From Candidatus Staskawiczbacteria bacterium RIFOXYB1_FULL_38_37 (lineage in GTDB: Bacteria; Patescibacteriota; Minisyncoccia; Minisyncoccales; Staskawiczbacteraceae): a stretch of DNA of 64,000 bases. A program made the position numbers and the translations under genes. Shown one piece after another: positions 2,212 to 47,766 of this stretch. Each line of letters starts with the position of its first letter. The first letter of the stretch is position 1. The stretch covers positions 71,979 to 135,978 of the forward strand of contig MHPK01000004.1 in NCBI GenBank assembly GCA_001822075.1. Reading direction: 5' to 3'. Below the pieces are notes generated by a model. It was given only the letters and a program-made list of their open reading frames with translations. It made no database searches and was not told the origin of the DNA.

Positions 2212-4017
2212 CTAATTTTCTGCAGAAATTATTTTTCTTTTTGCTTCTCTGGCTCTTAAAACTTCTTCTGGAGCTGTAGTTATTATCTGGTCTTCTGTTT
2301 GGCTGGCAACAACAGAAATTGCAACATGTTTTTTACCGGCAAAAAATAATCCTTCTCCTACGGCAGCTTCAAGCAAAAGGTATTTTTCCTGCTCTGTTAA
2401 ATTAAAGGTTTTTTGCACAATATCAATTGTGGCTGGAGACTGCTTCATTAAAAGCTGCAAAGAAGAGTTTGTAACAATTGCCTTTCCATAATCTGATTTC
2501 ATAAAATCAGCAACGTCTTGGGTGATTGTCGTAACCCCAAGCCAGTATTTTCTGCCTCTTTTTGCCAGCCCAAATAAAAATGAAGCCCCGTCTTCTGACT
2601 GCATAAGCCACCATGCCTCGTCAATCACAAGTATTCTCTTTTTTAAGCTTGTTCTAACAATATTCCAAACATACCTCATAATTATATATAAAGCTATTGG
2701 CCTTAAAGATTCTTCCATATCTCTTATTCCAAAAACAACAAGGCTTTTTTCTATTGAAATATTTGAGTGCTGATTAAAAAAATCTGCAAAAGTGCCCTTG
2801 GTGAATTTTTTAATTCTTTTTACCAAAGATTCGGTTCCTGTCATGCTTTCTAAAACTTCTTCAAAGTCAGACATCAAGGGCACATTGTTCTGCCATGTTG
2901 CAGGGTCAGCCTGGGCAGTAATATCTCTTATAGCATAGGTTTCTGTGAGAGCCTCGTCTAAAACACTATCTTCTTCTGCAGTAAGCCCGCCAAGCATAAT
3001 TCTTAAAAGCCCTACCAAGTTAATAATGTTTGAGCGCAAAATGTCTTCTGGGTTGTCATCTGGCCCTGGGGTTGGCAGGTCAAATGGATTTAAATGGTTG
3101 GGCGAGGTAAGTGAAATTTTTAAAAAAGCTCCTCCCACAGAATCAGCCAAAGCCTCATATTCATTTTCAGGGTCAATAATAATTACATCAACCCCCTGCA
3201 TTAAATATCTTAAAATTTCCAATTTTATAGCATATGATTTTCCCGAGCCGGCTTTTGCAAAAACAACTGAATTAGCGTTTTCCAAACTAAATCTGTCAAA
3301 CAACACCAAAGAATTGTTATGCCGGTTTATGCCGTATAAAATACCTTCGTTTGAGCTTAAGTCAAAAGACATAAAGGGAAACGAGGTTGAAAGGGGCTCT
3401 GTGTCCATTGGGGTGTGCACATCCAGTAAATCTAATCCATACGGGTTGCAGGAAATAAATCCTTCTTTTTGCTTGAACAAAGCAGGCTTTATATAAATTA
3501 GCCTTGATTCAAAAATTGACCTCAAGGTAAGTTCTGTGTCTCTTAATTCTTTTTCTGAATTTTCATAAACTGTTATATAAAGCCCGAACCTGAACATTTT
3601 TTCCTGGGCTGTCATAAGCTTATCCCTTAAGTTTTCAATATCCCTATAAGCTGTTTCAAGCGCAGGGTCTCTTACAAGCCCTTTTTCTTCTCTTTCTAAA
3701 ATTTCAGAAGACACCTCAGTAATTTTTTTTCTTAATTTTTTTAGAATAAGCTCTGAAGAAATTGGGTGCACAAAAAACGATATGTCCATTGGGCTGCTTA
3801 AGTCAATTACAGGCGTCAGCCAGCCTGTGTTTAAATATCTGGGGTATGAAAAAACAAAAAAAGATTTTGCGAACCTTTCGCCCAGTTTTATGTGGTCTTG
3901 GGTAATTCCAATATACGGGGGAGCAATAATGTCTTTTACATCAAAAGATTCCTCTTCAAATATCTTGTCTTCAATCTCGTTTTCTTTTTTCCCGAATAAA
4001 TTGTCTAAAAATTTCAT
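2212..4017 (-). CDS. virB4: VirB4/TrbE/PrgJ-type type IV secretion ATPase
   Basis: 601-aa ORF; Walker A AKAGSGKS, Walker B ILVIDEAWWL; stop lies 13 nt upstream of the pilin-fusion gene start. Confidence 0.9.
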   Translation of the reverse strand: MKFLDNLFGKKENEIEDKIFEEESFDVKDIIAPPYIGITQDHIKLGERFAKSFFVFSYPRYLNTGWLTPVIDLSSPMDISFFVHPISSELILKKLRKKITEVSSEILEREEKGLVRDPALETAYRDIENLRDKLMTAQEKMFRFGLYITVYENSEKELRDTELTLRSIFESRLIYIKPALFKQKEGFISCNPYGLDLLDVHTPMDTEPLSTSFPFMSFDLSSNEGILYGINRHNNSLVLFDRFSLENANSVVFAKAGSGKSYAIKLEILRYLMQGVDVIIIDPENEYEALADSVGGAFLKISLTSPNHLNPFDLPTPGPDDNPEDILRSNIINLVGLLRIMLGGLTAEEDSVLDEALTETYAIRDITAQADPATWQNNVPLMSDFEEVLESMTGTESLVKRIKKFTKGTFADFFNQHSNISIEKSLVVFGIRDMEESLRPIALYIIMRYVWNIVRTSLKKRILVIDEAWWLMQSEDGASFLFGLAKRGRKYWLGVTTITQDVADFMKSDYGKAIVTNSSLQLLMKQSPATIDIVQKTFNLTEQEKYLLLEAAVGEGLFFAGKKHVAISVVASQTEDQIITTAPEEVLRAREAKRKIISAEN

Positions 4018-4789: not shown

Positions 4790-4857
4790 AATTTTACTAA
4801 TTATAAATTTTAAATTCTAAATTTTAATTGAAAAAACTAATTTTAAAATGTTTAAAT

Positions 4858-5229
4858 TTAATCAGAATTTTTATCCACAGAAGAAATTACTATTTTGGAA
4901 AAAATAAGCGTTAACTCTTGAGCTTCGTTCCAAAGTTTTCTGCACATGTCTGTTTTCTCTGGGTTAGCTTTGGCAATCATTCTTAACCAGTGTTTAGTTT
5001 CTCTTGTTTCTTTTTTGCAGATGCATATTTTATTTCTAAAGTCTTTTTTAGAGCTAGCCCCGTTTGCCTCCATATAATTTGCTCCAACACTCGTTGAAGA
5101 CCTTATTATCTGGCTTACGAGAGGACGGTTTATCTCGTTTTTTTCTAATGTTTTAATAAAGTCAATCATATCTTCGCCAAACCGAGCAGTCCTTTCTTCT
5201 AAGTCATATTTACAATTTGTTTTGTCCAT
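4858..5229 (-). CDS. Four-helix-bundle protein (23S rRNA intervening-sequence protein family)
   Basis: 123 aa with the family signature SSTSVGANYMEANGASSKKDFRNKICICKKETRETKHWL; flanked by inverted AT-rich repeats at 4797-4835 and 5243-5280. Confidence 0.85.
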   Translation of the reverse strand: MDKTNCKYDLEERTARFGEDMIDFIKTLEKNEINRPLVSQIIRSSTSVGANYMEANGASSKKDFRNKICICKKETRETKHWLRMIAKANPEKTDMCRKLWNEAQELTLIFSKIVISSVDKNSD

Positions 5230-5281
5230 TTAATCATTTAAATTTCATTTAAAATTGAAAATTTAAAATTTAAAATTAACT

Positions 5282-9884: not shown

Positions 9885-10286
9885 TTAGTTTTCTTTTAAT
9901 GTTTTATAAACAAACCATATCCATGTGGGCGAAGCCCCGCCTAAAAATGGAAATATTTCTATCATGGAAGTTGTGATAAATCTCCTTAAGCCCTTTTTAA
10001 CAACGTCTTTATTAAAACCAGACCTGAAAAAAACCCACCCTCCGATAATAGCTAATCCAACCGCATCTAATATTCCATAATCGTCTATAGCAAACCAAGT
10101 TCCAAGAATAAAAATAATAAAGCCAATTCCATCTAAAAGTCCGGCAATGCATAACATTAAAATTCCTTCGGGAGATGTCAAATTAGCATTTGCGCTTTTT
10201 TCTTCTGTGCCTTCGTCGGTTGTTTCATCTGAAGGGTTGCTATTATCTGTTGTACCTTCTTTTTTGTCTGTTGCATCTGCCATCAA
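9885..10286 (-). CDS. Small membrane protein with an acidic N-terminal tail, first gene of the T4SS-like cluster
   Basis: 133 aa with 3-4 predicted TM helices; its stop lies 2 nt before the VirB6-like start. Confidence 0.6.
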   Translation of the reverse strand: MMADATDKKEGTTDNSNPSDETTDEGTEEKSANANLTSPEGILMLCIAGLLDGIGFIIFILGTWFAIDDYGILDAVGLAIIGGWVFFRSGFNKDVVKKGLRRFITTSMIEIFPFLGGASPTWIWFVYKTLKEN

Positions 10287-10363
10287 TGTTGAACTTTTGT
10301 TTTGATTATATAAAATCGTTTTCTGCAGAAGCCCGGCATCTGCAGAAAAACAGAAATATTATT

Positions 10364-10409
10364 TAATTTTACATTATTTAAAGATTTCAAGGAAGCCAAG
10401 TTATTAACA
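10364..10409 (-). pseudogene. Fossil fragment of a ksgA 3' region (repeat R, copy 1)
   Basis: 46/46 nt identical to 11338-11383; the minus strand reads NNLASLKSLNNVKL. Confidence 0.6.
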
Positions 10410-10451
10410 GGCCATTTATTTTAATATAAAAATTTGTTATCATAAAGCCGT

Positions 10452-10859
10452 ATGGAAATAATAGCAGAACAAAAATTAAGTGTTGCAAAAGTTGCCAAAA
10501 AATTTAAGTTGAAATTAATTTTAATTTTTGGATCTTTTGCAAGCGGCAAACAACGAAAAGGCAGCGATTTAGATGTCGCTATTTTGGGTTTAAAGGGCAT
10601 TTCTTTTAATGAGGAAATTAAAATAGCTGGCGAATTGTCATTAATTTTTAGCAAAAATGTTGATATATCGGTTTTAAATACTGCTAATCCGCTGCTAACT
10701 TTTCAGGCAAGCAAAAATAGCATTTTACTTTATGGAAATAAAGAAGATTTTTTTAAGTTTAAAATATATGCGTTTAGCAGATATAATGATTATGCCCCTT
10801 ATTTTTTGATGGAGAGAGATTTAAACAAAAAAATAATAAACTCCTATGCCAGCCGATAA
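10452..10859 (+). CDS. mntA: MntA-type nucleotidyltransferase antitoxin
   Basis: 135 aa; minimal NTase motif GSFASGKQRKGSDLDVAIL; overlaps the downstream HEPN gene by 14 nt. Confidence 0.8.
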   Translation: MEIIAEQKLSVAKVAKKFKLKLILIFGSFASGKQRKGSDLDVAILGLKGISFNEEIKIAGELSLIFSKNVDISVLNTANPLLTFQASKNSILLYGNKEDFFKFKIYAFSRYNDYAPYFLMERDLNKKIINSYASR

Positions 10860-11268
10860 AGAGCTTGTAAATCGCAAAATAACCCTGATAAACGAAGACT
10901 TAAAGAGTTTAAAATTATTAAGCAAAGTTTCCCTTAAAACATATTTAAGTAAAACAGATTACGAAGTCTTGGCAGAAAGGTATTTAGAAAGAATCATTGG
11001 TCGCATGATTGACATTAACTACCACATTTTATCCGAGAACGATAACAAAATTCCTGTTGATTTTTATACATCTTTCATAGAATTGGGCAAAAAGAAATAT
11101 CTTTCGCTAAAATTGGCAAAAACTATGGCTAATTCCGCTGGTTTGAGAAATCGGCTTGCGCACGAATATGATGAAATTGATCCAAAAAAAGTTTATGGAG
11201 CGGTGAAGAGTTGTTTGAAAGATACTCCAAAATACTTAAAAAGTATAATAAAGTCATTGGGCTTGTAA
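10846..11268 (+). CDS. hepT: HepT (DUF86/HEPN) toxin
   Basis: 140 aa; HEPN Rx4-6H motif RNRLAHEYDEID near the C-terminus. Confidence 0.8.
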   Translation: MPADKELVNRKITLINEDLKSLKLLSKVSLKTYLSKTDYEVLAERYLERIIGRMIDINYHILSENDNKIPVDFYTSFIELGKKKYLSLKLAKTMANSAGLRNRLAHEYDEIDPKKVYGAVKSCLKDTPKYLKSIIKSLGL

Positions 11269-11277
11269 GCTATCTGC

Positions 11278-11383
11278 CAGATTTTTCCAATCTTTAATAG
11301 ATAGGGTTTCTGCGCGCTGGTTGGGATTAATGTTATCTAATTTTACATTATTTAAAGATTTCAAGGAAGCCAAGTTATTAACA
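11278..11383 (-). pseudogene. Fossil copy of the ksgA 3' end (about 35 codons)
   Basis: The minus strand reads NNLASLKSLNNVKLDNINPNQRAETLSIKDWKNLADS. Compare the real KsgA C-terminus NIDPKQRAETLSIEDWKNLANTPSKW. Confidence 0.75.
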
Positions 11384-11400
11384 TGTGATTAACATGTGAC

Positions 11401-11432
11401 GAGTTTGTAGTTGGTAGTGAGTAGTTGGTAGC
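11401..11432. repeat. Left inverted repeat (heptad TNNGTAG array) flanking the four-helix-bundle gene
   Basis: GAGTTTGTAGTTGGTAGTGAGTAGTTGGTAGC is about 25/28 complementary to 11832-11864. Confidence 0.7.
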
Positions 11433-11445
11433 AAATACTAAATAA

Positions 11446-11805
11446 TCAATCTTTCAACTCTTTTGTAAGTTTATTTAACATGCGCATTATTTGGCACAAG
11501 AGGTCTTCTATGTTTGGATAGATTTCTTTTTTACTAAACTGTAGTCTTTTGGCTATTTTTATTTGGGTTTCCAGCTCTGCGCCAGACCCATAAGCGTTTA
11601 AAAGAAAATTACGAAAATCTTTTCGTGAACTTCGACGGCTGCCTTCGGCAATATTAGAGGGAATAGAAACTGATGCTCTGCGCATTTGAGAAACCAATCC
11701 ATATATTTCTTCTTTTGGAAAATTTTGAGTTAATTCATAAACAAGAATAACCAAGTCCATTGACTTTTGCCAAACAATTAAATTTTCGTAAGATTCTATC
11801 CCCAT
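11446..11805 (-). CDS. Four-helix-bundle protein (23S rRNA intervening-sequence protein family)
   Basis: 119 aa; ASVSIPSNIAEGSRRSSRKDFRNFLLNAYGSGAELETQ signature. Confidence 0.85.
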   Translation of the reverse strand: MGIESYENLIVWQKSMDLVILVYELTQNFPKEEIYGLVSQMRRASVSIPSNIAEGSRRSSRKDFRNFLLNAYGSGAELETQIKIAKRLQFSKKEIYPNIEDLLCQIMRMLNKLTKELKD

Positions 11806-11831
11806 ATTTTTTAATTATGTTTCTGCGTCTT

Positions 11832-11864
11832 CTACAAACTACTCACTACAAACTACCAACTAAC
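11832..11864. repeat. Right inverted repeat flanking the four-helix-bundle gene
   Basis: CTACAAACTACTCACTACAAACTACCAACTAAC, the reverse-complement partner of 11401-11432. Confidence 0.7.
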
Positions 11865-11925
11865 TTGATCCAATCCTTGACCGATAAAGTTTCGGCTCGT
11901 TGGGTCGGTTTTAAGTTATTTTTTA
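11864..11925 (-). pseudogene. Second, more diverged fossil copy of the ksgA 3' end
   Basis: The minus strand reads NNLKPTQRAETLSVKDWIKLVGSL*, with an in-frame stop just upstream. Confidence 0.65.
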
Positions 11926-12015
11926 AAAGCTATATTTCTACTTCTTGTTTTTTAAGCACTTATTTAAAAATGAATGAGGCGGACGTCGAGCAGCCCCAAA
12001 TGTCTGAAACAACAA

Positions 12016-12702
12016 TTAAAAAAATGCTTTATACCCAATGTTTTTTTTAATTTCCAGAAGGAAAAAAGATTTTACGTCCTTCCATGTTGCCTTAAAATAA
12101 GTTTTGGGAGAGGGGTCTTCCTCGGCATCTTCAAAGTACGTAAGTGATTTTATAATGTGAGATAAATTTTGCTTTACAGAATATTGACTCATAGCCATAT
12201 CAATTGTTTTTTTTAATGGTTGAACATTTAAGGACAGCCAGTATAAATCAAAAAAATCGCGTTTCCTTCCGCGTTGGCTTATGGCTGCAATTTTCATTGC
12301 GGCAATGTCTTCTGGCGACATTATGGAAACAGCGCCGATTTTTAAAAAAGGTTTTGAAGCCTTAAAAAACGGGTATGAAATTAAACTTATTTTTGCTCTG
12401 TTAAGTTCTCCATATAATGTCCCTTCTTTAAGGAATGTTGTTTTCCAACCGCCGCCAATGCTTAAAATTTCTTCGGCATTTTTTTCATCAAACGATTTTT
12501 TAGGAGTAAAAAAATCCAAATCTATTGAACTGCGGTGTCCTTTTTGTATAGACAAAGCAGTCCCGCCGGCAAGGTACCAGCCGTTTTGCGCAAAAAAAGG
12601 AATTTCAATGCATCGTAGAAATGCTTTTTTAGTAGCTCTTGGAATTGCGCCCAAATACAATTTTTCCAATGCGGTTTTATCTATTTTAGAAAAAGAGACC
12701 AT
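12016..12702 (-). CDS. AbiEii/AbiGii-family nucleotidyltransferase toxin
   Basis: 228 aa; LAGGTALSIQKGHRSSIDLDFF motif typical of the family. Confidence 0.75.
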   Translation of the reverse strand: MVSFSKIDKTALEKLYLGAIPRATKKAFLRCIEIPFFAQNGWYLAGGTALSIQKGHRSSIDLDFFTPKKSFDEKNAEEILSIGGGWKTTFLKEGTLYGELNRAKISLISYPFFKASKPFLKIGAVSIMSPEDIAAMKIAAISQRGRKRDFFDLYWLSLNVQPLKKTIDMAMSQYSVKQNLSHIIKSLTYFEDAEEDPSPKTYFKATWKDVKSFFLLEIKKNIGYKAFF

Positions 12703-12905
12703 AAGGATTTTGATTTTTTGCTAATTTGGGCTCTTGGCAGATTCATCACTTTTTTTATTTTATTTTTAGAGTATGTTTTAAAAAGCCAGCGAACTTCATC
12801 CGGCTCTCCAAATTCTAATATTCGTTCAATTATATATCTAGCATTCTTTCCGACGTCGATATTTTTTGGATCGGTATCCCAAAAGAGGGTTTCTCTGAAC
12901 TTCAT
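12681..12905 (-). CDS. Small putative antitoxin partner of the AbiEii-like gene
   Basis: Start trimmed to ATG 12905 (MKFRETLFWDTDPKNIDVGKNARYIIERILEFG..), because the longer ORF overlaps the ksgA 3' end. Overlaps the toxin start by 22 nt. Confidence 0.6.
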   Translation of the reverse strand: MKFRETLFWDTDPKNIDVGKNARYIIERILEFGEPDEVRWLFKTYSKNKIKKVMNLPRAQISKKSKSLWSLFLK

Positions 12906-12915
12906 ATGTTTAATT

Positions 12916-13770
12916 TTACCATTTTGAAGGGGTGTTTGCAAGGTTTTTCCAATCTTCAATAGACAGAGTTTCTGCGCGTTGTTTGGGGTCAATGTTATTT
13001 TTTATTAGTATAGCATCCACTTGTTTTTTATCGATTTTTAAAATTTTTGATAAGTTACCAGCAAGTTGTTTTCTTGGATGAGAAAATCCGGCTTTAACAA
13101 TTTTAAAAAATAAAACTGGGTCAATTTTATTTTTATTCTCCCGTGGAATAATTTTTATTATTGCAGAATCAACTTTTGGAGAAGGCCAAAAACAATTTTT
13201 TGAAACATAAGAAATAATTTTAACATCTGCGTAAAATTGCACAGACACAGCCAGCAAGCTCATATCAGGAGGCTTTGAGCATATTCTTTGAGCAACTTCT
13301 TTTTGAACCATCAAAATTATTTCTGAAGGCTTGTTATCAGATTCTAAAAATTTTCTTATTAAGGGCGAGGTAAGGTAGTACGGTATGTTAGAGACGACTT
13401 TATAATTTGAAAATTGAGAAATTAAGTTTTGATTTAAAATTGAAAATTTAAAATTTAAAATTCTGAGAATATCGCCGTTTATAATTTCTATATTTTTATA
13501 ATCTTTTAATGTTTCACCCAAAATTTTTATCATTATTTTGTCTTTTTCCACGGCAATCACCTTTTTTGCATTTTTTGCAAGCTCCTGCGTTAAGGTGCCA
13601 ATTCCAGGCCCTACCTCCAGCACAACATCATTTTTATTTAAATCAGCAGCGCCAATAATTTTTTTAAGGACATTTTTATCAATTAAAAAATTTTGGCCAA
13701 GTCCTTTAGACGGCCGGGCGCTATATTTTGATAAAATTTCTTTAATTGTTGTTGGAGAAGTTAAATCCAT
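12916..13770 (-). CDS. rsmA: 16S rRNA (adenine1518/1519-N6)-dimethyltransferase
   Basis: 284 aa; SAM motif LEVGPGIGTLT and NIPYYLTSP. Contains an AT-rich repeat insertion at 13432-13462. Confidence 0.92.
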   Translation of the reverse strand: MDLTSPTTIKEILSKYSARPSKGLGQNFLIDKNVLKKIIGAADLNKNDVVLEVGPGIGTLTQELAKNAKKVIAVEKDKIMIKILGETLKDYKNIEIINGDILRILNFKFSILNQNLISQFSNYKVVSNIPYYLTSPLIRKFLESDNKPSEIILMVQKEVAQRICSKPPDMSLLAVSVQFYADVKIISYVSKNCFWPSPKVDSAIIKIIPRENKNKIDPVLFFKIVKAGFSHPRKQLAGNLSKILKIDKKQVDAILIKNNIDPKQRAETLSIEDWKNLANTPSKW

Positions 13771-13925
13771 TTTAAAATTATATCATATTTTTTAGTGTTT
13801 TGGTGTGCATAAACTGTCTTGACTTGGCTTCCTTGAAATGGTAAATTTGAATTAGGTTTTAAAATTAACCCGTAAAGGTTATTTCTAATATAACTAAAAA
13901 AATAAAACGGGCAAATCCAAGGGGG

Positions 13926-16523: not shown

Positions 16524-17036
16524 TTATTTTTCTTTAAAGCCGATTTCAGAATTAGTTTTATTCTCGTCAGCCAATAAAAGCCGCAAAATATCAAAAACTT
16601 TTTTTATTTTTGCATCATACTTTCTTTCTATTTGCATTATTTTTCTTTGCAAGGCTTCATTTGTTGCCAGCAACTCCCTAATTTTTACAAAAGTCCTTAT
16701 TATTTGGATATTTACATTTATCGCTCTGTTGCTATTTAGTACGCTAGCCAACATGGCTACGCCCTGTTCTGTAAAAACATATGGTTCATATCTCGCTCCA
16801 CCCCAACTTGAGGTTTCAAATTGAAACCTCAAGTTTTTAAACTCTTGTTTTGATAATCGGAACATAAAATCTTCTGGAAATCTTTTAATGTTCCTTTTTA
16901 CAGCGAGATTTAAAGATTTTGTTGGCACATTATAAAGTTGTGCCAAATCTTTATCTATCATAACTTTTTTATTGTGGATAATATATATTTTGTTAGCAAT
17001 CCTTTCGCTTGGAATTAGGTTTAAATTTTTATCCAT
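16524..17036 (-). CDS. ORF6N-domain (KilA-N-like) DNA-binding protein, paralog 1
   Basis: 170 aa; IYIIHNKKVMIDKDLAQLY..FTEQGVAMLASVLNSNRAINVNIQIIRTF. Roughly 60 percent identical to 20259-20786 by eye. Confidence 0.8.
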   Translation of the reverse strand: MDKNLNLIPSERIANKIYIIHNKKVMIDKDLAQLYNVPTKSLNLAVKRNIKRFPEDFMFRLSKQEFKNLRFQFETSSWGGARYEPYVFTEQGVAMLASVLNSNRAINVNIQIIRTFVKIRELLATNEALQRKIMQIERKYDAKIKKVFDILRLLLADENKTNSEIGFKEK

Positions 17037-19368: not shown

Positions 19369-20226
19369 TTACTTTAAAAGTTGTTGAACATACTTAATGC
19401 AATCTTCTCTTTCAGTAGAATTTCCATATTTTGAAGGCATTATTTTGTCACATAGAGAAGTATCTTTTTTTTGTATGGCGATTTCTCCGTAACACGTATT
19501 TTTCCTTGCTATCTCTGCTTGTTCATTATCATAAACAGTTCTATTCAAATAATTAGATGAAAAATAAATTTTTTCACAAAAAGCTACATCTGACTTTTCT
19601 CTGGCACACCGTATATAACATTCATTTTTTTCTCCCTCATTAAGTGTTTTTTCACAAGCTACAGAACAGTCAAGCTGACCCATATTCACTGATAGCCTGA
19701 TACATTGGTTATAATAAAAGTTTTCAGGAGTATCTCTTTTTTTTATTTTTTCGCATATCGAAACATCCCCCTTGCTCTTAGATATCTCCACATAACACAT
19801 GGATGCTTTATCATTATCTTTTACATAGCCACACAAATTTTCATCGTTGAGTTTTATAGCTATACTGTAGTAACATTGGCTGTATATCGAATTGTCATTT
19901 ATTTTTTCGCAAATTTTAGGGTTTTCTAACTCTGTAGCCACTCTGCCGTAACAATAATCAATTAATAAAGAATCGTTCAGTCTTTTGCACATAGAAGGGT
20001 CTTCTTCAGAGACGGCATAAGAACTAATTACCTCTAATTCACAGGTTTGTTTTTCAACTTCGGAAAATTTTTCGCAGCCGAAATTTTTTATCATTAAATT
20101 TATTTCCCGATCTTTTTCAATTTTTGGCACAAAGTAATTTTGATATATAAAATACCCCGCTCCTCCCAGCAGAGCGACAACCACAACAGTTAAAATAATT
20201 ATAATGTATAAATATTTTTTGTTCAT
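19369..20226 (-). CDS. Membrane-anchored protein built of repeated Cys-pair modules
   Basis: 285 aa; N-terminal TM helix, then about 8 repeats of the type C-x(8-14)-C-Y/E-x-I/V-A (e.g. ICEKINDNSIYSQCYYSIAIK, LCGYVKDNDKASMCYVEISKS). Confidence 0.65.
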   Translation of the reverse strand: MNKKYLYIIIILTVVVVALLGGAGYFIYQNYFVPKIEKDREINLMIKNFGCEKFSEVEKQTCELEVISSYAVSEEDPSMCKRLNDSLLIDYCYGRVATELENPKICEKINDNSIYSQCYYSIAIKLNDENLCGYVKDNDKASMCYVEISKSKGDVSICEKIKKRDTPENFYYNQCIRLSVNMGQLDCSVACEKTLNEGEKNECYIRCAREKSDVAFCEKIYFSSNYLNRTVYDNEQAEIARKNTCYGEIAIQKKDTSLCDKIMPSKYGNSTEREDCIKYVQQLLK

Positions 20227-20258: not shown

Positions 20259-20786
20259 TTATTTTTTAAAGCCGATTTCGGATTTTGGTTCAGTTTTATT
20301 ATCGCCTGCTTGCAAAAGTCCTAATATGTAAAAAATCTTTTTTATTTTATCATTTTGGCTCCCGTATTTTTTCTCTAATTCCATTATTTTTCTTTGCATA
20401 ATTTCATTCGTTGCCATAAGTTCGCGGATTTTCACAAATGTGCGAATAATCTGTAGGTTTACATTTATTGCTCGGTCATTGTTTAGCACGCTTGATAACA
20501 TTGCCACACCCTGTTCAGTAAAACAAAATGGAAGTTTTCTTAATCCCATCTTTTCAGAATTGGATATTTCAATTTGCAATATCCAATTTTTCATTTCTTT
20601 TTTGCTCATCTGGAACATAAAGTCTTCAGGGAATCTCTTTATATTTCTTTTCACAGCTAAATTTAAATTTCCTGTTGTGACCCCATAGAGTTCAGCTAAA
20701 TCTCTGTCCAGCATCACTTTCCTGTTGCGGAGAATATAAATTTTATTAACAATTCTTTCGCTTGGAATTATAATTGAATTTTTCAT
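20259..20786 (-). CDS. ORF6N-domain (KilA-N-like) DNA-binding protein, paralog 2
   Basis: 175 aa; FTEQGVAMLSSVLNNDRAINVNLQIIRTF. Bracketed by 26-bp direct repeats at 20230-20255 and 20785-20810. Confidence 0.8.
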   Translation of the reverse strand: MKNSIIIPSERIVNKIYILRNRKVMLDRDLAELYGVTTGNLNLAVKRNIKRFPEDFMFQMSKKEMKNWILQIEISNSEKMGLRKLPFCFTEQGVAMLSSVLNNDRAINVNLQIIRTFVKIRELMATNEIMQRKIMELEKKYGSQNDKIKKIFYILGLLQAGDNKTEPKSEIGFKK

Positions 20787-27268: not shown

Positions 27269-28189
27269 ATGTCAAAAGAGAGTGGAGTAATTGAAATAAC
27301 TAATAAAAAGTATCCGAAAGCGCTGAAACAGGCGCTTTCGGTTTTGGTGCCAAGCTCTGGCCCGAAAAAATTGTATTACAAAGGAAATTGGTCAGATGAT
27401 ATTTTCAAAAATTGCCTGGCAGTTGTTGGCTCCAGGCATTTAACTTATTATGGCAGAAAGGCCACAGAGCAAATTGTAACAGAATGCGCAGCAGCTGGCA
27501 TTACAATAGTTTCAGGTTTTATGTATGGCGGAGATGAAGCGGCTCATTTAGCTGCTGTAAAATGCGGAGGAAAAACAATTGCTGTTATGCCTTGCGGCAT
27601 AGACTTAATACACCCCGCAAATCAAAAAAATCTATATCAGGAAATTTTAAACAACAACGGCCTTGTAGTTTCAGAATACGAAGGCTCCGCCCAGCCTCAA
27701 AATTTTACCTATGTGCAAAGGGACCGGCTTGTGGCAGGGCTTTCAAAAGCAGTTTTGGTCACGGAGGCTGCTTTAAATTCCGGCTCTTTGATTACGGCCA
27801 GCTATGCCAAAAAATATAACAGAAAAGTTTTTGCTGTGCCAGGGCAAATTACTTCAGAAGTTTCAAGAGGAACTTTAAAATTGATAAAAGAGGGAGCTGA
27901 ACCTGTGGCTGACGCAAGCGATATTTTAAGCTATTTTAAAGTTTTGGTGAATCAAGGAGTTAATCAAGTTGATCGAGCCCCGAGCTCACAAAATTTTGTG
28001 AGCTCGGGGCTCACAAAAACTGGCTCGTTAGAGCAAAAAATAATTGCCCAGTTAAAAAGAGAGGCTTTAAGAGCAGATGAAATGGCAAGAATTTTTAATG
28101 TGCCTGTTGCCCAACTTGGCACAACGTTGTCTTTAATGCAGCTTAAAGGCCAAATTTTACAGGATTTTGGAAAATATTACATCAGTTAA
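27269..28189 (+). CDS. dprA: DNA-processing protein DprA
   Basis: 306 aa; AVVGSRHLTYYGRKAT..GGDEAAH..VSEYEG Rossmann-type DprA core. The linker contains the 38-bp REP palindrome. Confidence 0.88.
   Translation: MSKESGVIEITNKKYPKALKQALSVLVPSSGPKKLYYKGNWSDDIFKNCLAVVGSRHLTYYGRKATEQIVTECAAAGITIVSGFMYGGDEAAHLAAVKCGGKTIAVMPCGIDLIHPANQKNLYQEILNNNGLVVSEYEGSAQPQNFTYVQRDRLVAGLSKAVLVTEAALNSGSLITASYAKKYNRKVFAVPGQITSEVSRGTLKLIKEGAEPVADASDILSYFKVLVNQGVNQVDRAPSSQNFVSSGLTKTGSLEQKIIAQLKREALRADEMARIFNVPVAQLGTTLSLMQLKGQILQDFGKYYIS
27975..28012. repeat. 38-bp perfect palindrome (head-to-head REP pair) inside dprA
   Basis: GAGCCCCGAGCTCACAAAA|TTTTGTGAGCTCGGGGCTC; the same GTGAGC-N5-GCTCAC unit that flanks the RAYT gene. 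Confidence 0.9.
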
Positions 28190-29246: not shown

Positions 29247-30782
29247 ATGCTGATTAAAATTCCATCGGTGGCGAATTTGGGGTTAGAGACTATTAAGGTT
29301 GACATTGAAATAAATTTGGCAAACAAGGGTTTGCCTGGTTTTGAAATTGTGGGGCTTCCAGACAAAGCTGTAGGTGAAAGCAAAGAAAGGGTGAGGACCG
29401 CTATTTCAAGCTCTGGCATTGATTTTCCCGCGAAAAAAATTATGGTCAATATGGCCCCGGCCGACGTTCCAAAAGAGGGATCAGTTTATGACCTGCCCAT
29501 TGCTGTTGGAATTTTAAGCAGTATTTTAGAGTTTTCCGTGCCTTCAAAATCATTATTTTTAGGAGAACTATCGTTTGACGGCTCTCTAAGGCATACAAAG
29601 GGAGCTTTTTTAATGGCTTTGTTTGCTAAGGAGTTCGGTTTTACAAGCTTGTATGTGCCAAAAGATTCTGCCAATGAGGCAGCAGCTATAAAAGGCCTTA
29701 AAGTTTATGCTGTTGAAAATTTAACCCAGATATGCCAGCACTTTTTGGGACGCGAAAAGATTTTCCCAGTTGATTACAAAGAAGTTTCAGAAAATATTGA
29801 AAGCCCGGCTGAATTTGACATGAAAGAAGTTTTGGGCCAAGAGCAGGCAAAAAGAGCCATGGAAATTGCTGCTGCCGGAGGCCACAACATTATTATGATT
29901 GGCTCTCCAGGGTCTGGCAAAACAATGCTGGCGCGCGCCTTGCCCGGAATTTTACCCCCCTTAAATGAAGAGGAGTCTCTGGAGGTAACTAAAATTTATT
30001 CAGCCTCTGGCGACATTCCTCCGGGCGGCTCTTTAATTGTAAAAAGGCAGTTCAGAACGCCCCACCACACAGCCTCTTTGGCTGGCTTGGTTGGAGGCGG
30101 GTCTAAGCCAAGGCCCGGAGAAATCAGCTTGGCTCATAGGGGCGTTTTATTTTTAGACGAATTCAACGAGTTCCAGCGCTCAATTATGGAAGCTATGCGC
30201 CAGCCGTTAGAAGACGGATGCCTGACCATTTCAAGGGCAAAACAAAGAATAAAATACCCGGCCGATTTTATGCTTGTGGCTTCCGCCAACCCATGCCCCT
30301 GCGGATATGCCATGCACCCTAAAAAGAGCTGCGCGTGTTCTCTTAGCCAGATTTCAAAATACCAAAAAAGAATTTCAGGTCCTATTTTAGACAGAATTGA
30401 TTTGCATATTCAGGTAATGCCCGTGGACACGGATGCCTTTTCAGACAACCAAAAAAATTCTGAGTTTTTAGAGGCATCAGAAAAAATCCGCCAGCGGGTA
30501 ATGATAGCCCGTAAAAAGCAGGAGGCAAGATTTGCTTTTGAAAGCATTTGCTCAAACAATCAGATGAAAAACAGCCACATTAAAAAGTATTGCAAGCTTT
30601 TAAAAGAAGTTGAGCAAATTTTAAGGCAGGCGGCAATGAAGTTCCAGCTTTCAGCCAGGTCTTATATGAAAATGATAAAAGTGGCCCGCACAATTGCGGA
30701 CTTGGACAGCTCAGAAGAAGTTTTACCAGCCCATATGCTGGAAGCCTTGCAATACCGTCCTAAAAACTATGAATCGTCTTAA
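29247..30782 (+). CDS. comM: Mg-chelatase-like AAA+ protein ComM/YifB
   Basis: 511 aa; Lon-like N-domain, Walker A MIGSPGSGKTM, LFLDEFNEF. Confidence 0.9.
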   Translation: MLIKIPSVANLGLETIKVDIEINLANKGLPGFEIVGLPDKAVGESKERVRTAISSSGIDFPAKKIMVNMAPADVPKEGSVYDLPIAVGILSSILEFSVPSKSLFLGELSFDGSLRHTKGAFLMALFAKEFGFTSLYVPKDSANEAAAIKGLKVYAVENLTQICQHFLGREKIFPVDYKEVSENIESPAEFDMKEVLGQEQAKRAMEIAAAGGHNIIMIGSPGSGKTMLARALPGILPPLNEEESLEVTKIYSASGDIPPGGSLIVKRQFRTPHHTASLAGLVGGGSKPRPGEISLAHRGVLFLDEFNEFQRSIMEAMRQPLEDGCLTISRAKQRIKYPADFMLVASANPCPCGYAMHPKKSCACSLSQISKYQKRISGPILDRIDLHIQVMPVDTDAFSDNQKNSEFLEASEKIRQRVMIARKKQEARFAFESICSNNQMKNSHIKKYCKLLKEVEQILRQAAMKFQLSARSYMKMIKVARTIADLDSSEEVLPAHMLEALQYRPKNYESS

Positions 30783-33316: not shown

Positions 33317-34146
33317 GCCCCGAGCTCACAAGAGTTTGTAAAACTAAAAAATGACTATATTAGACCATGCCGCGGAGAAAAGAACAATTTGTAACCGGCG
33401 AGATTTATCATATTGTAATACGAGCGATTGATAATAACTTGATTTTTAAGGACTTAAACGATTATTATCGCGGCATTTTTTCTATTTACGAGTTTAATAA
33501 CGCCATCCCTGTGAATATTTTTAATCGACGATTAGCCAGGACCGCTGAAAAGAAAAAAGAAAAATTTTGTGAGCTCGGGGCTCACAAAATTTTAGTAGAA
33601 GATGCAAGAGATAAATTTATTAAAGTTTTAGCTTTTTGCTTTATGCCAAACCACGTTCATCTTCTGACAAAACAAATAAAAGACGGGGGAATATCCAAAT
33701 TTATGCAAAAAGTTGGAGGCGGATACGGAGGATATTTTAACAGAAAATATCAGAGGAAGGGTCATGTTTTTCAAAACGAATTTAAATCGGTTCATGTGGA
33801 TACAGATAATCAGCTTATAGCGACAGCTTCGTATATTTTTACAAACCCTATTGCACTTATTGAACCCAGTTGGAAGGAAAAAGGAATTCAAAAACATTCT
33901 GTAAAGGAGGTCTCAAAGTTTTTGGAAGACTATAAATGGTCAAGTTATCAAGACTGCATTGGCGTTAAAAATTTCCCTTCTGTTACAGAAAGAGAATTTC
34001 TTTTAGAAACAATGGGCGGAATAAATGGCTTGAATGGAGTTGTAAAAGATTGGATAGAGCATAAAAAAGACATTGCAAAATACACAGACTTATTTTTAGA
34101 GTAAATCTTGTGAGCTCGGAGCTCACAAGATTTTGTGAGCTCACAA
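33313..34146 (+). mobile_element. REP-RAYT unit: Y1 transposase gene bracketed by GTGAGC-N5-GCTCAC hairpins
   Basis: REP copies at 33313-33329 (loop CCCGA), 33561-33593 (inside the gene), 34104-34132 (loop TCGGA, opposite orientation) and 34133-34146 (loop-less). Confidence 0.75.
33367..34104 (+). CDS. REP-associated tyrosine transposase (IS200/IS605-type Y1 HUH transposase-like)
   Basis: 245 aa; HUH motif MPNHVHLL and catalytic Tyr context ASYIFTNP. Confidence 0.8.
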   Translation: MPRRKEQFVTGEIYHIVIRAIDNNLIFKDLNDYYRGIFSIYEFNNAIPVNIFNRRLARTAEKKKEKFCELGAHKILVEDARDKFIKVLAFCFMPNHVHLLTKQIKDGGISKFMQKVGGGYGGYFNRKYQRKGHVFQNEFKSVHVDTDNQLIATASYIFTNPIALIEPSWKEKGIQKHSVKEVSKFLEDYKWSSYQDCIGVKNFPSVTEREFLLETMGGINGLNGVVKDWIEHKKDIAKYTDLFLE

Positions 34147-37431: not shown

Positions 37432-37666
37432 AGCTATATATAAAAAGAAGTGGCCATTTTACTCTAAATAAAATTAAATACCCTCGTCTGGCGGTTTTAA
37501 ATTGCGCTGGAAATTTTTTGTAATAGAATATAGTTTGGACGGGGGAAATACCCTAAAGGCAATAGGGTATTTTGTGTTTATAAAATCACATAACACATAG
37601 CATAGAACACATAACAGAAACGTTTTTGTCATGTTCCATGTTCCATGTTTTATGTTTCATGCGCTA

Positions 37667-40600
37667 ATGGCTGAAATAATTAGCAAGGTAAAAAATTTTT
37701 CAAAATCTAAACTCTCTTTTTCCACCCCGCATCTTTTAACCATGCAAAGGCAGACATGGGAGGATTTTTGGCAGGTTAGAGTAAAAGAGCTTTTAGAAGA
37801 AATTTCTCCCATACGCGATTACACCGGCAAAGAATTGGAGCTTTGGTTTGAAGATTACAAGCTTGGAAAGCAAAATTATAAAAACGGGCTGGAGGCTAAA
37901 AAAAATAATGATTCTCTTGAAGCTCCATTAAGAGCAAAAGTAAAGCTTGTAAATCTTAAAACAAAAGAAGTAAAAGAGCAGGAAGTGTTTTTGGCGGATT
38001 TTCCCATAATGACAGAAAGGGGCACTTTTGTGGTAAACGGAGTAGAAAGGGTTGTTGTTTCACAGCTTATCAGGTCTCCGGGAGCTTTTTTTACAACAAG
38101 GTCATGGAGAGGCAAAAATTATTTTGGAGCTAAAATAATTCCAAACAGGGGCGCATGGCTGGAATTTGAAACTGAGGACTCGGGATTTATTGGAGTAAAA
38201 ATAAACAGAAAAAGAAAAGTTCCTGCCACCACTTTGTTAATGGCTTTGGGCTTGGACGGAGTAGACAAAGTTGAAAAAGAATTTAAAGACACAGATACAG
38301 GAGAAATAAAATATATAAAAGAAACCCTTAAAAGAGAAACATGCAAAGACCAAAAAGAAGCTTTGGTTGAAGTTTACCGCAGGCTAAGGCCCGGCGATTT
38401 GGTTACTCCAGACACTGCCCAGGACTTGATATTTAATATGTTCTTTAATTTTGACAGGTATGACTTGTCAAAAGTGGGCAGATGGAAAACATGGCAGAGG
38501 CTGCCTCAGTTGGCTCCGAAAAAAATAGATAAAGATATTTTGAAAGAAGACAGAATATTAAAGCTGGAAGATATTATTGAAGTTATAAAAGAAGTTATAA
38601 GGTTAAACAACAAGCCCGATGCAAAACCAGACCAGGTTGACCACTTGGGAAACAGAAGGGTAAGAACTTTATCTGAGCTTTTGCAAAACAGAATGAGAGT
38701 TGGCTTGATGCGCATGGAAAGAATTATAAAAGATAAAATGTCTACTTTGGATGTTGCCACTATAACCCCGATACAGCTTATAAACCCAAGGCCGCTGATG
38801 GCAGTGGTAAAGGAATTTTTCACTTCCTCCCAATTCTCGCAATTCATGGACAATGAAAACCCATTGGCAGAATTAGAGCACAAAAGAAGGCTCACAACAA
38901 CAGGCCCCGGAGGATTAACAAGAGAAAGGGCAGGGTTTGAGGTAAGAGATGTGCAGCCTTCACACTATGGAAGAATTTGCCCCATTGAAACTCCAGAAGG
39001 CCCTAATGTGGGGCTTGTGGGGCACTTGGCTTCTTTTGCAAGAATAAACCCTTATGGGTTTATTGAGGCCCCTTATTTTAAAGTAAAAAACGGAAAAGTT
39101 ACAGACGAAATTCATTATCTTTCAGCCCAAGACGAAGAGAGGTACAGCATTGCCCCGGCTTCTGTTCCCTTGACAGAATCTGGAAAAATTCTTCCTGAAA
39201 TTCCCCCAGACAAAGTTGAGGCAAGAGTGAAAGGAGAGCCAGAGGAAGTGCAAATTTCAAAAATTGACTATATAGATGTTTCTTCAAAGCAATTTATTTC
39301 AGTTGCAACATCTTTGATTCCTTTTTTGCAAAACGATGATGCATCTAGGGCATTAATGGGTTCTAACATGCAAAGGCAGGCGGTTCCTTTAATAAGGCCA
39401 GAGCCACCATTAGTGGGAACAGGAGCTGAAAGGAATGTTGCCCGCGATTCAGGGCAGGTAATTTTAGCTAAAGGCCATGGAGTTGTAAAAGAGGCAGACG
39501 CCCAGCACATAAAAGTGCAGTATGATATTTCGGGCAAAAAATCAGAAGAAAATTACGAGCTTCAAACTTTTGTTAGAACAAACCAGTATTCATGTTTTCA
39601 CCAAAAGCCAATAGTTGAGAAAGGAGAAGAAGTAAAGAAAGGAGATGTTTTAGCTGACGGAGCCGCTATTTCACAAGGAAGATTGGCTTTGGGAAGAAAT
39701 ATTTTAATGTGTTTTTTGCCTTTAAGAGGAGGCGGATTTGAAGACGCGCTTACTATTTCAGAAAAATTAGTTAAAGAAGACGAATTTACTTCAATACACA
39801 TTGAAGACTTTAAGTGCGACGTCAGGGAAACAAAGCTTGGGCCGGAAGTTACAACTTCTGATATTCCCAATGTTGGCGAAGAAAAATTAAAAGATTTAGA
39901 CGAAGAAGGAATTGTAAGAATCGGGGCTGAAGTCGGACCTAACGATATTTTGGTTGGAAAAATTTCGCCAAAAGGGGAAGCCGAATTAACTCCGGAAGAA
40001 AGATTGCTAAGGGCAATTTTCGGCGAAAAAGCAAAAGATGTAAAAGACAGCTCTTTGCGCATGGAGCACGGAAAGAAAGGAAAAGTTGTAAATGTAAAAA
40101 TATTTTCAAGAGAGCTTGGACACAAGCTAGAGCCCGGAGTAATAAAAAGGGTGCAGGTTGAGGTTGCAGAATGCAGAAAAATAAAAGTTGGAGACAAGCT
40201 GGTGGGCAGGCACGGAAACAAAGGAGTTGTTTCAAAAATTCTGTCTGAAGCTGAAATGCCGTTTTTAGCTGACGGAACTCCTATTGATTTGGTAATGTCT
40301 CCATTGTCTGTTCCTTCCCGTATGAACATCGGGCAGATTTTAGAAACTCATCTTGGATGGGCAGCCCACGAATTAAATTATATTGCAATTTCTCCAGCCT
40401 TATTGGGAGCTGATAAAACAGATGTTAAAAAAGAACTAAAAGAAGCAGGATTGCCAGAGTCAGGGCAGATTACAGTTTATGACGGCAGAACGGGTCTTCC
40501 TTTTCCAAAGCCGATTACTGTGGGTTATATGTATATAATGAAGCTGATACATATGGTGGACGATAAAGTGCACGCCAGGTCTATTGGGCCATATTCGTTA

Positions 40601-40930
40601 ATTACGCAACAGCCGTTGGGAGGAAAGGCTCAGTTCGGAGGCCAAAGATTTGGAGAAATGGAAGTATGGGCTTTGGAAGGATACGGGGTGGCTCACACTT
40701 TGCAAGAAATGCTTACAATAAAATCTGACGACGTTGCAGGAAGAGCCGCAACTTACGAAGCCATATTAAAAGGCGAGCCCATAAGAAACCCCAACATTCC
40801 AGCTTCATTTAATTTGCTTGTTGCTGAATTGAAATCTTTGGGAATGTCAGTAGAAGTAAAAGAAAAACCAAGATTAATAAAAGACGACACCAGAGAAGAC
40901 AGAAGAGACAACCGCGGAGAAAGAAAATAA
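37667..40930 (+). CDS. rpoB: DNA-directed RNA polymerase beta subunit
   Basis: Start trimmed to ATG 37667 (MAEIISKVKNFSKSKLSF..PHLLTMQRQTWEDFW). GDKLVGRHGNKGVVSKIL and other universal blocks are present. Confidence 0.95.
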   Translation: MAEIISKVKNFSKSKLSFSTPHLLTMQRQTWEDFWQVRVKELLEEISPIRDYTGKELELWFEDYKLGKQNYKNGLEAKKNNDSLEAPLRAKVKLVNLKTKEVKEQEVFLADFPIMTERGTFVVNGVERVVVSQLIRSPGAFFTTRSWRGKNYFGAKIIPNRGAWLEFETEDSGFIGVKINRKRKVPATTLLMALGLDGVDKVEKEFKDTDTGEIKYIKETLKRETCKDQKEALVEVYRRLRPGDLVTPDTAQDLIFNMFFNFDRYDLSKVGRWKTWQRLPQLAPKKIDKDILKEDRILKLEDIIEVIKEVIRLNNKPDAKPDQVDHLGNRRVRTLSELLQNRMRVGLMRMERIIKDKMSTLDVATITPIQLINPRPLMAVVKEFFTSSQFSQFMDNENPLAELEHKRRLTTTGPGGLTRERAGFEVRDVQPSHYGRICPIETPEGPNVGLVGHLASFARINPYGFIEAPYFKVKNGKVTDEIHYLSAQDEERYSIAPASVPLTESGKILPEIPPDKVEARVKGEPEEVQISKIDYIDVSSKQFISVATSLIPFLQNDDASRALMGSNMQRQAVPLIRPEPPLVGTGAERNVARDSGQVILAKGHGVVKEADAQHIKVQYDISGKKSEENYELQTFVRTNQYSCFHQKPIVEKGEEVKKGDVLADGAAISQGRLALGRNILMCFLPLRGGGFEDALTISEKLVKEDEFTSIHIEDFKCDVRETKLGPEVTTSDIPNVGEEKLKDLDEEGIVRIGAEVGPNDILVGKISPKGEAELTPEERLLRAIFGEKAKDVKDSSLRMEHGKKGKVVNVKIFSRELGHKLEPGVIKRVQVEVAECRKIKVGDKLVGRHGNKGVVSKILSEAEMPFLADGTPIDLVMSPLSVPSRMNIGQILETHLGWAAHELNYIAISPALLGADKTDVKKELKEAGLPESGQITVYDGRTGLPFPKPITVGYMYIMKLIHMVDDKVHARSIGPYSLITQQPLGGKAQFGGQRFGEMEVWALEGYGVAHTLQEMLTIKSDDVAGRAATYEAILKGEPIRNPNIPASFNLLVAELKSLGMSVEVKEKPRLIKDDTREDRRDNRGERK

Positions 40931-47286: not shown

Positions 47287-47295
47287 AATAAGATT

Positions 47296-47736: not shown

Positions 47737-47766
47737 ATTATAATAAACAAAATTAATAAAGATTTA

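Follow-up and report, generated by a model that had tools for sequence, protein, structure and literature searches.

Displaced ksgA tails and stacked small cassettes at a variable slot in a Candidatus Staskawiczbacteria genome

Introduction

C-terminal displacement in the rhs and contact-dependent growth inhibition (CDI) genes has been explained by homologous recombination via a circular intermediate, a proposal of Jackson et al. (2009) that involves no integrase (PMC2935791). In the T6SS (type VI secretion system) effector-immunity arrays of Vibrio cholerae, where displacement is sequential, Kirchberger et al. (2017) proposed homology-facilitated illegitimate recombination after natural transformation (PMC5361080). 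We describe a comparable structure at ksgA (rsmA), an rRNA methyltransferase gene, in a 64,000-nucleotide stretch of Candidatus Staskawiczbacteria bacterium RIFOXYB1_FULL_38_37 (GenBank assembly GCA_001822075.1, contig MHPK01000004.1, positions 71,979 to 135,978), hereafter the window, in which decayed copies of the 3' end of ksgA lie among small cassettes that carry toxin-antitoxin (TA) and other genes.

The host belongs to the Candidate Phyla Radiation (CPR, or Patescibacteria), a group with small, syntenic genomes; hardly any classical mobile element can be seen here, and the acquisition and exchange of defence and TA genes in these bacteria is poorly understood. An earlier note on the window had read several fragments as ksgA 3' ends that delimit serially inserted cassettes, and had likened their arrival to the integration of islands at tRNA or tmRNA genes. 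Comparison with related loci (numbered L) and KsgA proteins (numbered P) shows that the fragments diverged as functional ksgA alleles, that the end which ksgA carries at present is itself imported, and that each end is linked to its own cassette within a slot whose flanks are fixed.

Results

Displaced ksgA ends in the window

Downstream of ksgA, read along its strand, the window (36% GC) holds a DUF6922 gene, an AbiEii-like gene, fossil 2, a 23S_rRNA_IVP gene, fossil 1, hepT and mntA on the opposite strand, the short copy A', a hairpin and memb133, a gene for a 133-aa membrane protein (coordinates in Table 1). A tblastn search with KsgA against the whole 64 kb returned two extra matches, both on the ksgA strand, the next best having an E-value of 0.06. 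The first (11269-11376, 48% identity over 42 aa, E 9e-7) is part of fossil 1, which in full includes its own stop codon, and this overlaps the convergent stop of hepT; the second is fossil 2 (49% over 35 aa, E 1e-6), which has one in-frame stop where TGG has become TAG. The fragments are true ksgA 3' ends, as had been proposed, and the positions given for them earlier hold to within a few bases.

A further copy, A' (10355-10410), pairs with the segment A of fossil 1 (11329-11390). The two are copies of a 56-nt direct repeat with 2 mismatches; taken over 62 nt (10355-10416 and 11329-11390) the identity is 92%. Within it the 46 bp at 10364-10409 and 11338-11383 agree at all 46 positions, exactly as the earlier note had it. 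What A' holds, however, is only a part of the native tail, its first 56 nt, and the MntA/HepT unit brings a ksgA tail fragment of its own.

The window is identical to other Candidatus Staskawiczbacteria contigs (e.g. GCA_003518025.1), and the same KsgA protein is recorded on 53 contigs, the longest of 422 kb. All 24 of the identical-KsgA contigs that were read, from ENA, NCBI and JGI assemblies, share the arrangement, which is therefore not an assembly artefact.

Origin of the tails

A metagenome scan with an 18-mer contained in A and A' (ACTTGGCTTCCTTGAAAT) led to the closer relatives L110, L112 and L127, which carry it within their real ksgA. Their native tail, here called A-type (VNNLASLKS...; VNNLASLKSLNNVKL...), ends in PRKQLVNNLASLKSLNDVKLNKEKISEWLLKNNINPNQRAETLSVSDWIKLLDNFK and a stop codon, and memb133 follows directly. 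Fossil 1 and A' are this A-type tail, having 96% nucleotide identity to the real ksgA of the three relatives over 51-54 nt, and both A and A' have the same 36-nt deletion between two AATAA repeats. The distal part of fossil 1 is homologous to the ksgA tail of L094, and fossil 2 has 85% nucleotide identity to the real ksgA tail of L138.

The present gene is a mosaic. Up to the codons for PRKQL, a conserved KsgA motif (residues 232-236), its nucleotide identity to L110 is 85-97%; beyond them the identity to L110 and L112 falls to 52-63%, in a region where those two agree with each other at 83-100%. It follows that the present tail (residues 237-284) is imported. We call it AGN-type, as it starts with AGN..., a feature shared with L138. 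Other combinations of body and tail occur in close relatives: P0130 joins the window's body to the L138-type tail that P0131 also has, and P0129, from L141, has a body largely shared with P0131 and exactly the window's tail. L141 corresponds to window 14084-11596, and the two agree at 100% along 2.4 kb apart from one stretch of ~400 bp within ksgA (window 13285-13685, 51-93% identity, a 30-nt indel), a foreign patch that matches another lineage (P0131). L143 (4587-4845) is 99.8% identical to the window until ksgA residue ~205, continues for ~17 codons as another ksgA allele, and then reaches a hairpin like that at 10325-10347; it may be a deletion or recombinant variant, its position at a contig end making it indistinguishable from a chimera. 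The abiEii gene of L141 has a 10-nt deletion.

Differences between copies fall mainly at third codon positions. In L004 the real ksgA and its fossil differ at 7, 5 and 24 first, second and third positions over 294 nt (chi-square p 1e-4), with 22 codons changed synonymously only and 9 non-synonymously, and in the window the real tail and fossil 1 differ at 2, 0 and 7. The copies therefore diverged as functional alleles under selection in separate lineages and were united later. Gene and fossil of L004 also share a stretch of 95 nt that is 100% identical between flanks of 83-90%; it looks like a repeat element within the coding sequence and is a likely crossover site. The ksgA of L004 carries in-frame GC-rich inserts (e.g. 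...GVIARSLQVADPARATWQSRVRE..., at ~10690-10790 and 12140-12240).

Tails are linked to cassettes

The last nine codons of ksgA and its stop overlap the predicted promoter of the DUF6922/AbiEii operon (promoter scan), and L004 has the same ...KW end and stop, the same TGGTAAAAT and the same spacing. The final codons and stop of fossil 2 come from an arm of the element around the 23S_rRNA_IVP gene, which resembles an intervening sequence (IVS); in L008 such an arm supplies the real KsgA end and stop (...NLAQGAEGLGDRV, stop). The MntA/HepT module, which in the window converges on fossil 1, converges on the real ksgA in L094, L095 and L142, and between L094 and the window there is 84.8% nucleotide homology across 10411-11329, the interval between the two repeats. 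Linkage of tail and cassette is seen in all three modules of the window and in L004, L085, L094, L138 and L142. Since each tail abuts its own cassette, the moving unit is tail plus cassette, and the array reads from newest to oldest away from ksgA. Taken with the imported tail and the third-position bias, this upholds the serial arrival of cassettes with replacement ksgA ends that had been proposed from the sequence alone.

The newest cassette matches DUF6922 (6.7e-21) and AbiEii (4.4e-19) in Pfam, the latter being called by PADLOC as well; compared with the type IV TA and abortive-infection system AbiE, the partner of the AbiEii-domain gene is DUF6922 and not AbiEi. In the second cassette the IVP gene lies between inverted arms of 30 nt with 90% complementarity (11402-11431 and 11832-11861). 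Such genes were found between inverted arms of 23-43 nt, inside protein-coding operons, in 4 of the 4 cases checked (Table 1), and for the element of the second cassette a terminal stem is predicted in both the minimum free energy and the centroid folds (z -2.9). A true 23S rRNA IVS was considered and rejected: gene and ~30-bp stem are present, but here and in the three other copies they lie in a protein-coding operon and not in 23S rRNA. A literature search on the IVP protein family found nothing useful.

In the oldest cassette, mntA and hepT match Polbeta (1.6e-19; Polbeta/NTP_transf_2) and HepT-like (1.7e-18) and overlap by 14 nt, the layout of a putative type VII TA pair, in which a minimal nucleotidyltransferase gene overlaps a HEPN/HepT gene. 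Across Moranbacteria, Paceibacterota, Buchananbacteria, Falkowbacteria and Staskawiczbacteria (loci L085-L096) MntA/HepT protein is 70-89% identical. KsgA, at 45-68%, is much less conserved, and the contrast suggests that the pair is often transferred horizontally from one CPR phylum to another. Beside ksgA the module is found in both orientations; elsewhere it lies between secY and adk with no repeats (L088), or between 94-nt repeats of 77% identity that derive from the 5' end of the downstream gene (L091).

A variable slot between fixed flanks

In the relatives the gene order is conserved: NYN, PNPase, in some a hypothetical gene, DksA, the divergent LysM/M23 gene, ksgA, a variable slot, in some memb133, then VirB6 ... 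PrgI, TraC and VirB4. In L007, L043, L012, L110 and L112 nothing occupies the slot. L008 has an IVS-like element there, L005 a GIY-YIG mini-gene, L010 a Fic/RhuM gene, and L085, L138, L094/L095 and L142 have MntA/HepT; in L004 the slot holds DUF6922/AbiEii followed by a second nucleotidyltransferase/HEPN (TA) pair and ORF6N, and in L017 a 6.4-kb sugar island (carbamoyltransferase, NDK-Nudix, glycosyltransferase, epimerase). Such turnover of cassettes between fixed flanks had been predicted for this locus. As for the block resembling a type IV secretion system (T4SS), its gene order is conserved in relatives, and it is therefore chromosomal synteny and not cargo.

Displaced ksgA tails accompany the slot in five further lineages. 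In L004 the fossil is the 3' half of ksgA (residues 157 to the end, one frameshift), directly 3' of DUF6922/AbiEii; in L017 it is a 26-codon tail 6.4 kb downstream of ksgA; in L085 it reads KNNISPTQRAETLSVEDWLKLNKNFK and a stop, immediately after hepT; in L094 it reads (D)W, stop, KNLAESFPQPID, stop, after mntA; and in L138 and L121 it is a long A-type tail that harbours a decayed GIY-YIG gene. Analogous displaced-tail structures are present in unrelated metagenome-assembled genomes (MAGs).

Recombinases, breakpoints and a second stacked locus

Pfam scans covered the window's open reading frames (ORFs) of at least 100 aa at 2.2-37 kb and 45.8-64 kb, plus the inserts of L004, L017, L085, L091 and L138, and no tyrosine or serine recombinase was found among them. 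The sole recombinase-type candidate is an IS200-like, Y1_Tnp-like ORF at 33367-34104, 20 kb away between fpg and holA. The two largest ORFs at 37.6-45.6 kb, outside the Pfam scan, are probably RNA polymerase subunits: precomputed annotation gives the second Rpb1 domains. An exact protein look-up of RpoB (37631-40930) returned no record. No tRNA, tmRNA or known RNA that could be a hidden target lies near ksgA.

With ksgA intact, its tail foreign and the fossils downstream on the same strand, the locus agrees with what is expected where incoming DNA regenerates its target and leaves the displaced end distal. The breakpoints vary: the fossils start at KsgA residues ~157, 237, 246, 256, 257 and 274, and which stretch is identical depends on the locus: L004 has the 95-nt insert, L085 has PTQRAETLSVEDW, the window has VNNLASLK..., and in L091 another gene altogether is concerned. 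An integron was considered and rejected, no IntI having been found in the scanned ORFs and the cassettes having predicted promoters of their own and both orientations.

The window contains a second stacked locus at 46603-50068, in the order pyrH-like kinase, a small membrane ORF (B), an argS 5' fossil, a pyrH 3' fossil, a divergent paralog of B (B') and argS. The pyrH fossil has 14 differences in 87 nt, 3, 3 and 8 by codon position. Fossils of both neighbours are present at a single junction, a result that a 3'-end-specific integrase cannot produce. Also encoded in the window are DprA (27269-28189), a ComM-like Mg-chelatase-family ATPase (29247-30782) and RecO (54060-54794), which belong to DNA uptake and recombination.

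The inverted 18-mer

The 18-mer used in the metagenome scan occurs at exactly three sites, 10384-10401 and 11358-11375 on the minus strand and 13822-13839 on the plus strand; in a shuffle test 0 of 100 sequences gave three matches, even with 3 mismatches allowed. The inverted copy had been taken, together with the others, as a bracket around ksgA and the cassettes. That it bounds a mobile unit is not supported: the copy sits in the spacer of the conserved LysM/M23 promoter, whose -35 box is invariant in relatives, the closest relatives already match 13 of its 18 bases (18 of 18 in the window), and the orientation of ksgA is the same in every relative, so that no inversion or bracketing is suggested. 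All five of the window's changes there raise the identity to the reverse complement of the A-type codons NLASLK, and the simplest reading is a suspected short patch of gene conversion between partial inverted repeats. The promoter copy is specific to the window's species. For mntA the 18-mer is found 50 nt upstream of the start codon and for ksgA 51 nt upstream, pointing the same way with respect to both genes. The 18-mer was rejected as a core for recombination and as a regulatory motif repeated across genomes, since only 5 of 44 metagenome matches were related and all 5 lay inside ksgA tails; a sigma-70 promoter within the direct repeat, driving memb133/VirB6, was likewise rejected, there being no convincing -35/-10 pair.

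Between the divergent ksgA and LysM/M23 promoters lies a DnaA-box-like motif, TTATNCACA (13803-13811, where the window has TTATGCACA), conserved in position in L007, L010, L110, L112, L138 and L085.

Feature coordinates and neighbouring observations

Coordinates are collected in Table 1. The hairpin between A' and memb133 may be a terminator or processing site. Apart from a similar hairpin at the end of L143, the segment 10287-10354 and the short spacers beside the fossils have no homolog in any fetched locus. An 11-nt tandem duplication (TTAACATGTGA, twice) occupies 11378-11399, at the left boundary of fossil 1 and beside an arm of the IVS-like element. Further away, two ORF6N paralogs (67% identical, with strong PADLOC PDC-S05 matches) and a 285-aa ORF (16524-17036, 19369-20226 and 20259-20786) lie between NYN, PNPase and the next core gene; being absent from L007, they resemble additional inserted cassettes, although this ORF6N/NYN/PNPase region showed no fossil gene ends.

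Table 1. Features of the ksgA slot, of the second stacked locus and of the IVS-like elements (window coordinates unless a locus is named).
Feature	Coordinates	Strand	Basis or remark
ksgA/rsmA, 284 aa, intact	12916-13770	-	Pfam RrnaAD 1.2e-61, residues 22-279
ksgA body up to PRKQL codons, native to the lineage	13063-13770	-	Nucleotide identity to L110
Present ksgA tail (AGNLSK...NLANTPSKW, stop), imported, linked to DUF6922/AbiEii	12916-13062	-	
Predicted promoter of DUF6922/AbiEii operon, TTGCAA-17-TGgTAAAAT	12913-12941	-	Promoter scan; putative function
Cassette 3 (newest): DUF6922 12681-12905 and AbiEii-like nucleotidyltransferase 12016-12702	12016-12905	-	Pfam, PADLOC
Fossil 2, displaced ksgA tail (LKKQEVEI, stop, LLKNNLKPTQRAETLSVKDWIKL...)	11852-11956	-	tblastn
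Cassette 2: IVS-like element, 23S_rRNA_IVP four-helix-bundle gene 11446-11805	11402-11861	-	Pfam 1.3e-39, inverted repeat
Fossil 1, A-type tail fused at about ETL to the MntA/HepT-borne tail (SIKDWKNLADSLQAQ, stop)	11254-11390	-	tblastn, nucleotide identity to relatives
Cassette 1 (oldest): promoter region, mntA 10452-10859, hepT 10846-11268, opposite-strand ksgA tail (last 20-odd codons)	10411-11328	+	
A', first 56 nt of displaced native ksgA tail	10355-10410	-	Repeat search, alignment
Hairpin CTGCAGA-N8-TCTGCAG with T-rich run, between A' and memb133	10325-10347	-	Read from sequence
memb133, conserved downstream flank, first gene of the VirB6/PrgI/TraC/VirB4 block	9885-10286	-	Synteny
LysM/M23 peptidase gene promoter, TTGACT-17-TGgTAAATT, divergent from ksgA, conserved	13819-13847	+	Holds inverted 18-mer in spacer
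pyrH-like kinase	46603-47286		
Small membrane ORF B	47296-47736		
argS 5' fossil	47770-47865		
pyrH 3' fossil	47880-47966		
B', divergent paralog	47973-48410		
argS	48410-50068		
IVS-like element, window, further copy	4798-5278		
IVS-like element, L008	10757-11193		
IVS-like element, L005	14726-15177		

Discussion

How the array may have been built

The account towards which we lean, with moderate confidence, is a serial displacement of the tail of a housekeeping gene by host-mediated recombination of imported DNA, for which no integrase would be needed. A module consisting of a ksgA 3' tail fused to a small cassette would enter between the conserved ksgA body and the resident tail; the incoming tail would keep ksgA intact, and the old one, together with its own older cassette, would be pushed downstream and decay. 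At least three such events are envisaged. In the first the native A-type tail would have become linked to the MntA/HepT module, in the second a tail carrying the IVS-like four-helix-bundle element would have arrived, and in the third would have come the present tail, the last codons of which appear to double as the DUF6922/AbiEii promoter. DNA of related lineages would have entered the cell and been recombined by host enzymes, anchored through homology to the conserved ksgA body; its far end may have been joined by homology-facilitated illegitimate recombination, or a circularised fragment may have entered via a single crossover. The displaced tail would from then on offer a second homology arm, so that whole blocks of tail and cassette could be swapped between relatives by double crossover. 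Both the pathway and the route of DNA entry are inferred; insertion by homologous or homology-facilitated recombination would agree, indirectly, with the divergence at third positions, with the mosaic breakpoints, with the lack of an integrase in what was scanned and with the DprA, ComM-like and RecO genes of the window.

Several points weigh against this account. The left edge of the A-type fossil, where TGTTAATAACTTGG begins with the codon next to PRKQL, falls at exactly the same nucleotide in A, A', L138 and L121 despite different upstream neighbours, which might reflect a single event followed by homologous spread or a site-specific cut. Simple insertion by one crossover should leave the crossover segment in two copies, yet the A-type fossil has no second PRKQL block; A' lacks the rest of the native tail, so that an extra deletion must be assumed. 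Within the species no intermediate or excision variant turned up (the 90% cluster of this KsgA has one member), and the predicted junction without MntA/HepT, between the 56-nt repeats, had 0 matches in JGI contigs. Homology-facilitated illegitimate recombination was rare where it was measured (PMC5361080), and natural competence of the host organism is unproven. Finally, the patch in L141, which would fit the account, could be either a natural recombination patch or an assembly chimera. A HepT variant in L084 was rejected as a strain-level variant, the contig being a chimera that switches to high-GC foreign DNA.

Alternative explanations

The alternative that survives best is site-specific integration, in which an attP that includes the ksgA 3' end is recombined by an enzyme of the tyrosine or serine class that may act in trans or may have been lost, and the fossils are attR sites. 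At least six lineages make use of this one gene end, the succession of intact gene, cassette and 5'-truncated copy is the layout that att recombination leaves, the A-type boundary is shared to the nucleotide as described above, and L085 has a near-identical core of 41 nt with divergent arms on both sides. We nevertheless consider it unlikely. The scanned ORFs and inserts yielded no integrase, there is no shared core and the breakpoints scatter over the six residues listed above; away from ksgA the MntA/HepT module has unrelated local repeats around it or no repeats at all, and beside ksgA it occurs in both orientations; each cassette is one operon of <1 kb that has promoters of its own; and at the pyrH/argS locus both neighbours have left fossils. 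The integrase mechanism of tRNA and tmRNA islands, by which the earlier note had accounted for the fossils, is accordingly not supported.

A nuclease might instead have made the ksgA end a hotspot. GIY-YIG genes in the ksgA tail would cut naive alleles and repair from a donor would co-convert the flanks, the cassettes hitch-hiking as in intron-less homing and sloppy repair leaving duplications behind; this is compatible with host-mediated tail displacement as its initiating step. An intact GIY-YIG gene overlaps the ksgA end in L005 (8885-9190), a decayed one (Pfam 8e-14) lies between WLLKN and NINP in the displaced tail of L138 (~3365-3620) and L121 (~450-700), another lies between AbiEii and MntA/HepT in L091 (1482-1739), and the 36-nt deletion of A and A' abuts the GIY-YIG insertion point. 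As these genes recur at such hotspots, nuclease-triggered repair is a live sub-hypothesis. At the window's own ksgA locus, however, there is no GIY-YIG gene or remnant; the proteins, of 85-101 aa, consist of the catalytic domain only, with no recognisable DNA-binding domain, which makes homing conjectural, and the genes may be mere passengers. As an explanation of the array we rate it as quite unlikely.

If the ksgA 3' end had been duplicated locally in tandem and had then decayed neutrally, with cassettes inserted later and independently, this would account for A and A', a near-identical pair which by its shared derived deletion is a local duplication. For the other copies it is largely refuted by the codon-position and mosaic analyses: they differ mainly at synonymous third positions, a bias that neutral decay would not give, they match real tails of other genomes, and the present tail is foreign to its body. 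We give it very little credence. That co-assembled strain variants of the ksgA end were concatenated is scarcely credible, for although there are chimeric or doubtful contigs among the related ones (L084, and possibly also L141 and L143), the independent ENA, NCBI and JGI assemblies agree and analogues exist in unrelated MAGs.

Significance and comparison with described systems

The locus is a readable, ordered record of at least three acquisitions, and points to host recombination of taken-up DNA as their vehicle. A broader proposal, which we put forward tentatively and which may well not hold, is that a small defence/TA or other selfish cassette welded to the 3' tail of a conserved gene has thereby a portable homology arm and can spread in CPR bacteria without any enzyme of a mobile element. 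If so, any relative that takes up the DNA could install the cassette by host recombination, and with the displaced tail as second arm the block would become freely exchangeable. This would amount to a general, integrase-free flow of accessory genes in streamlined genomes, of which the pyrH/argS locus and the secY/adk and M50/mreB contexts might be further cases. Gene-end fossils could serve as a marker for finding insertion hotspots and ordering events in MAGs, and the mosaicism of tail and body warns against full-length ksgA as a phylogenetic marker in these lineages.

Among described systems, tRNA and tmRNA islands resemble this locus in that incoming DNA restores the 3' end of its target and leaves the displaced one behind at the distal junction. 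An integrase and an exact core common to attL and attR are features of those islands, whereas neither was found here. Integron arrays also stack small, mostly single-operon cassettes with the newest nearest the entry point, but have intI, attI and attC, which this locus does not, and here the cassettes have their own promoters and both orientations. The SCCmec and other staphylococcal cassette chromosome (SCC) islands at rlmH (orfX) share an rRNA methyltransferase 3' end as target, tandem elements, gene-end direct repeats and some units without a recombinase. SCC elements use the Ccr serine recombinases and a fixed integration-site sequence of ~15-18 bp; here, in contrast, no recombinase and no fixed core were found, and the repeats are of 56-430 nt and divergent.

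The likeness is closer to the Vibrio T6SS arrays, where the module next to the conserved upstream gene is likewise the newest and its predecessors have moved downstream, with remnants of 3' ends retained. In those arrays the old immunity genes are kept by selection, whereas retention here may be due to TA addiction or be neutral, and the anchor gene is unrelated to the cargo. As in rhs and CDI genes, a constant body has exchangeable 3' tips, each tied to a small downstream gene, and older orphan tips pile up downstream in the same orientation and match tips that are attached elsewhere, fossil 1 corresponding to the real tail of L110, L112 and L127 and fossil 2 resembling that of L138. The constant gene is here an rRNA methyltransferase in place of a polymorphic toxin, its tail does not act as a toxin, what travels with it is a TA pair, an IVS-like element or a sugar island and not a cognate immunity gene, and the host is a CPR bacterium. 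The principle is known; since a literature search on ksgA as an integration site returned only incidental mentions and nothing relevant, its setting seems to be new. The locus shows that a housekeeping gene for an rRNA methylase can take the role that rhs and T6SS effector genes have in proteobacteria, and the case is best filed as a variant of C-terminal displacement, set at such a gene of a CPR bacterium and with small passengers of TA, IVS-like and other kinds.

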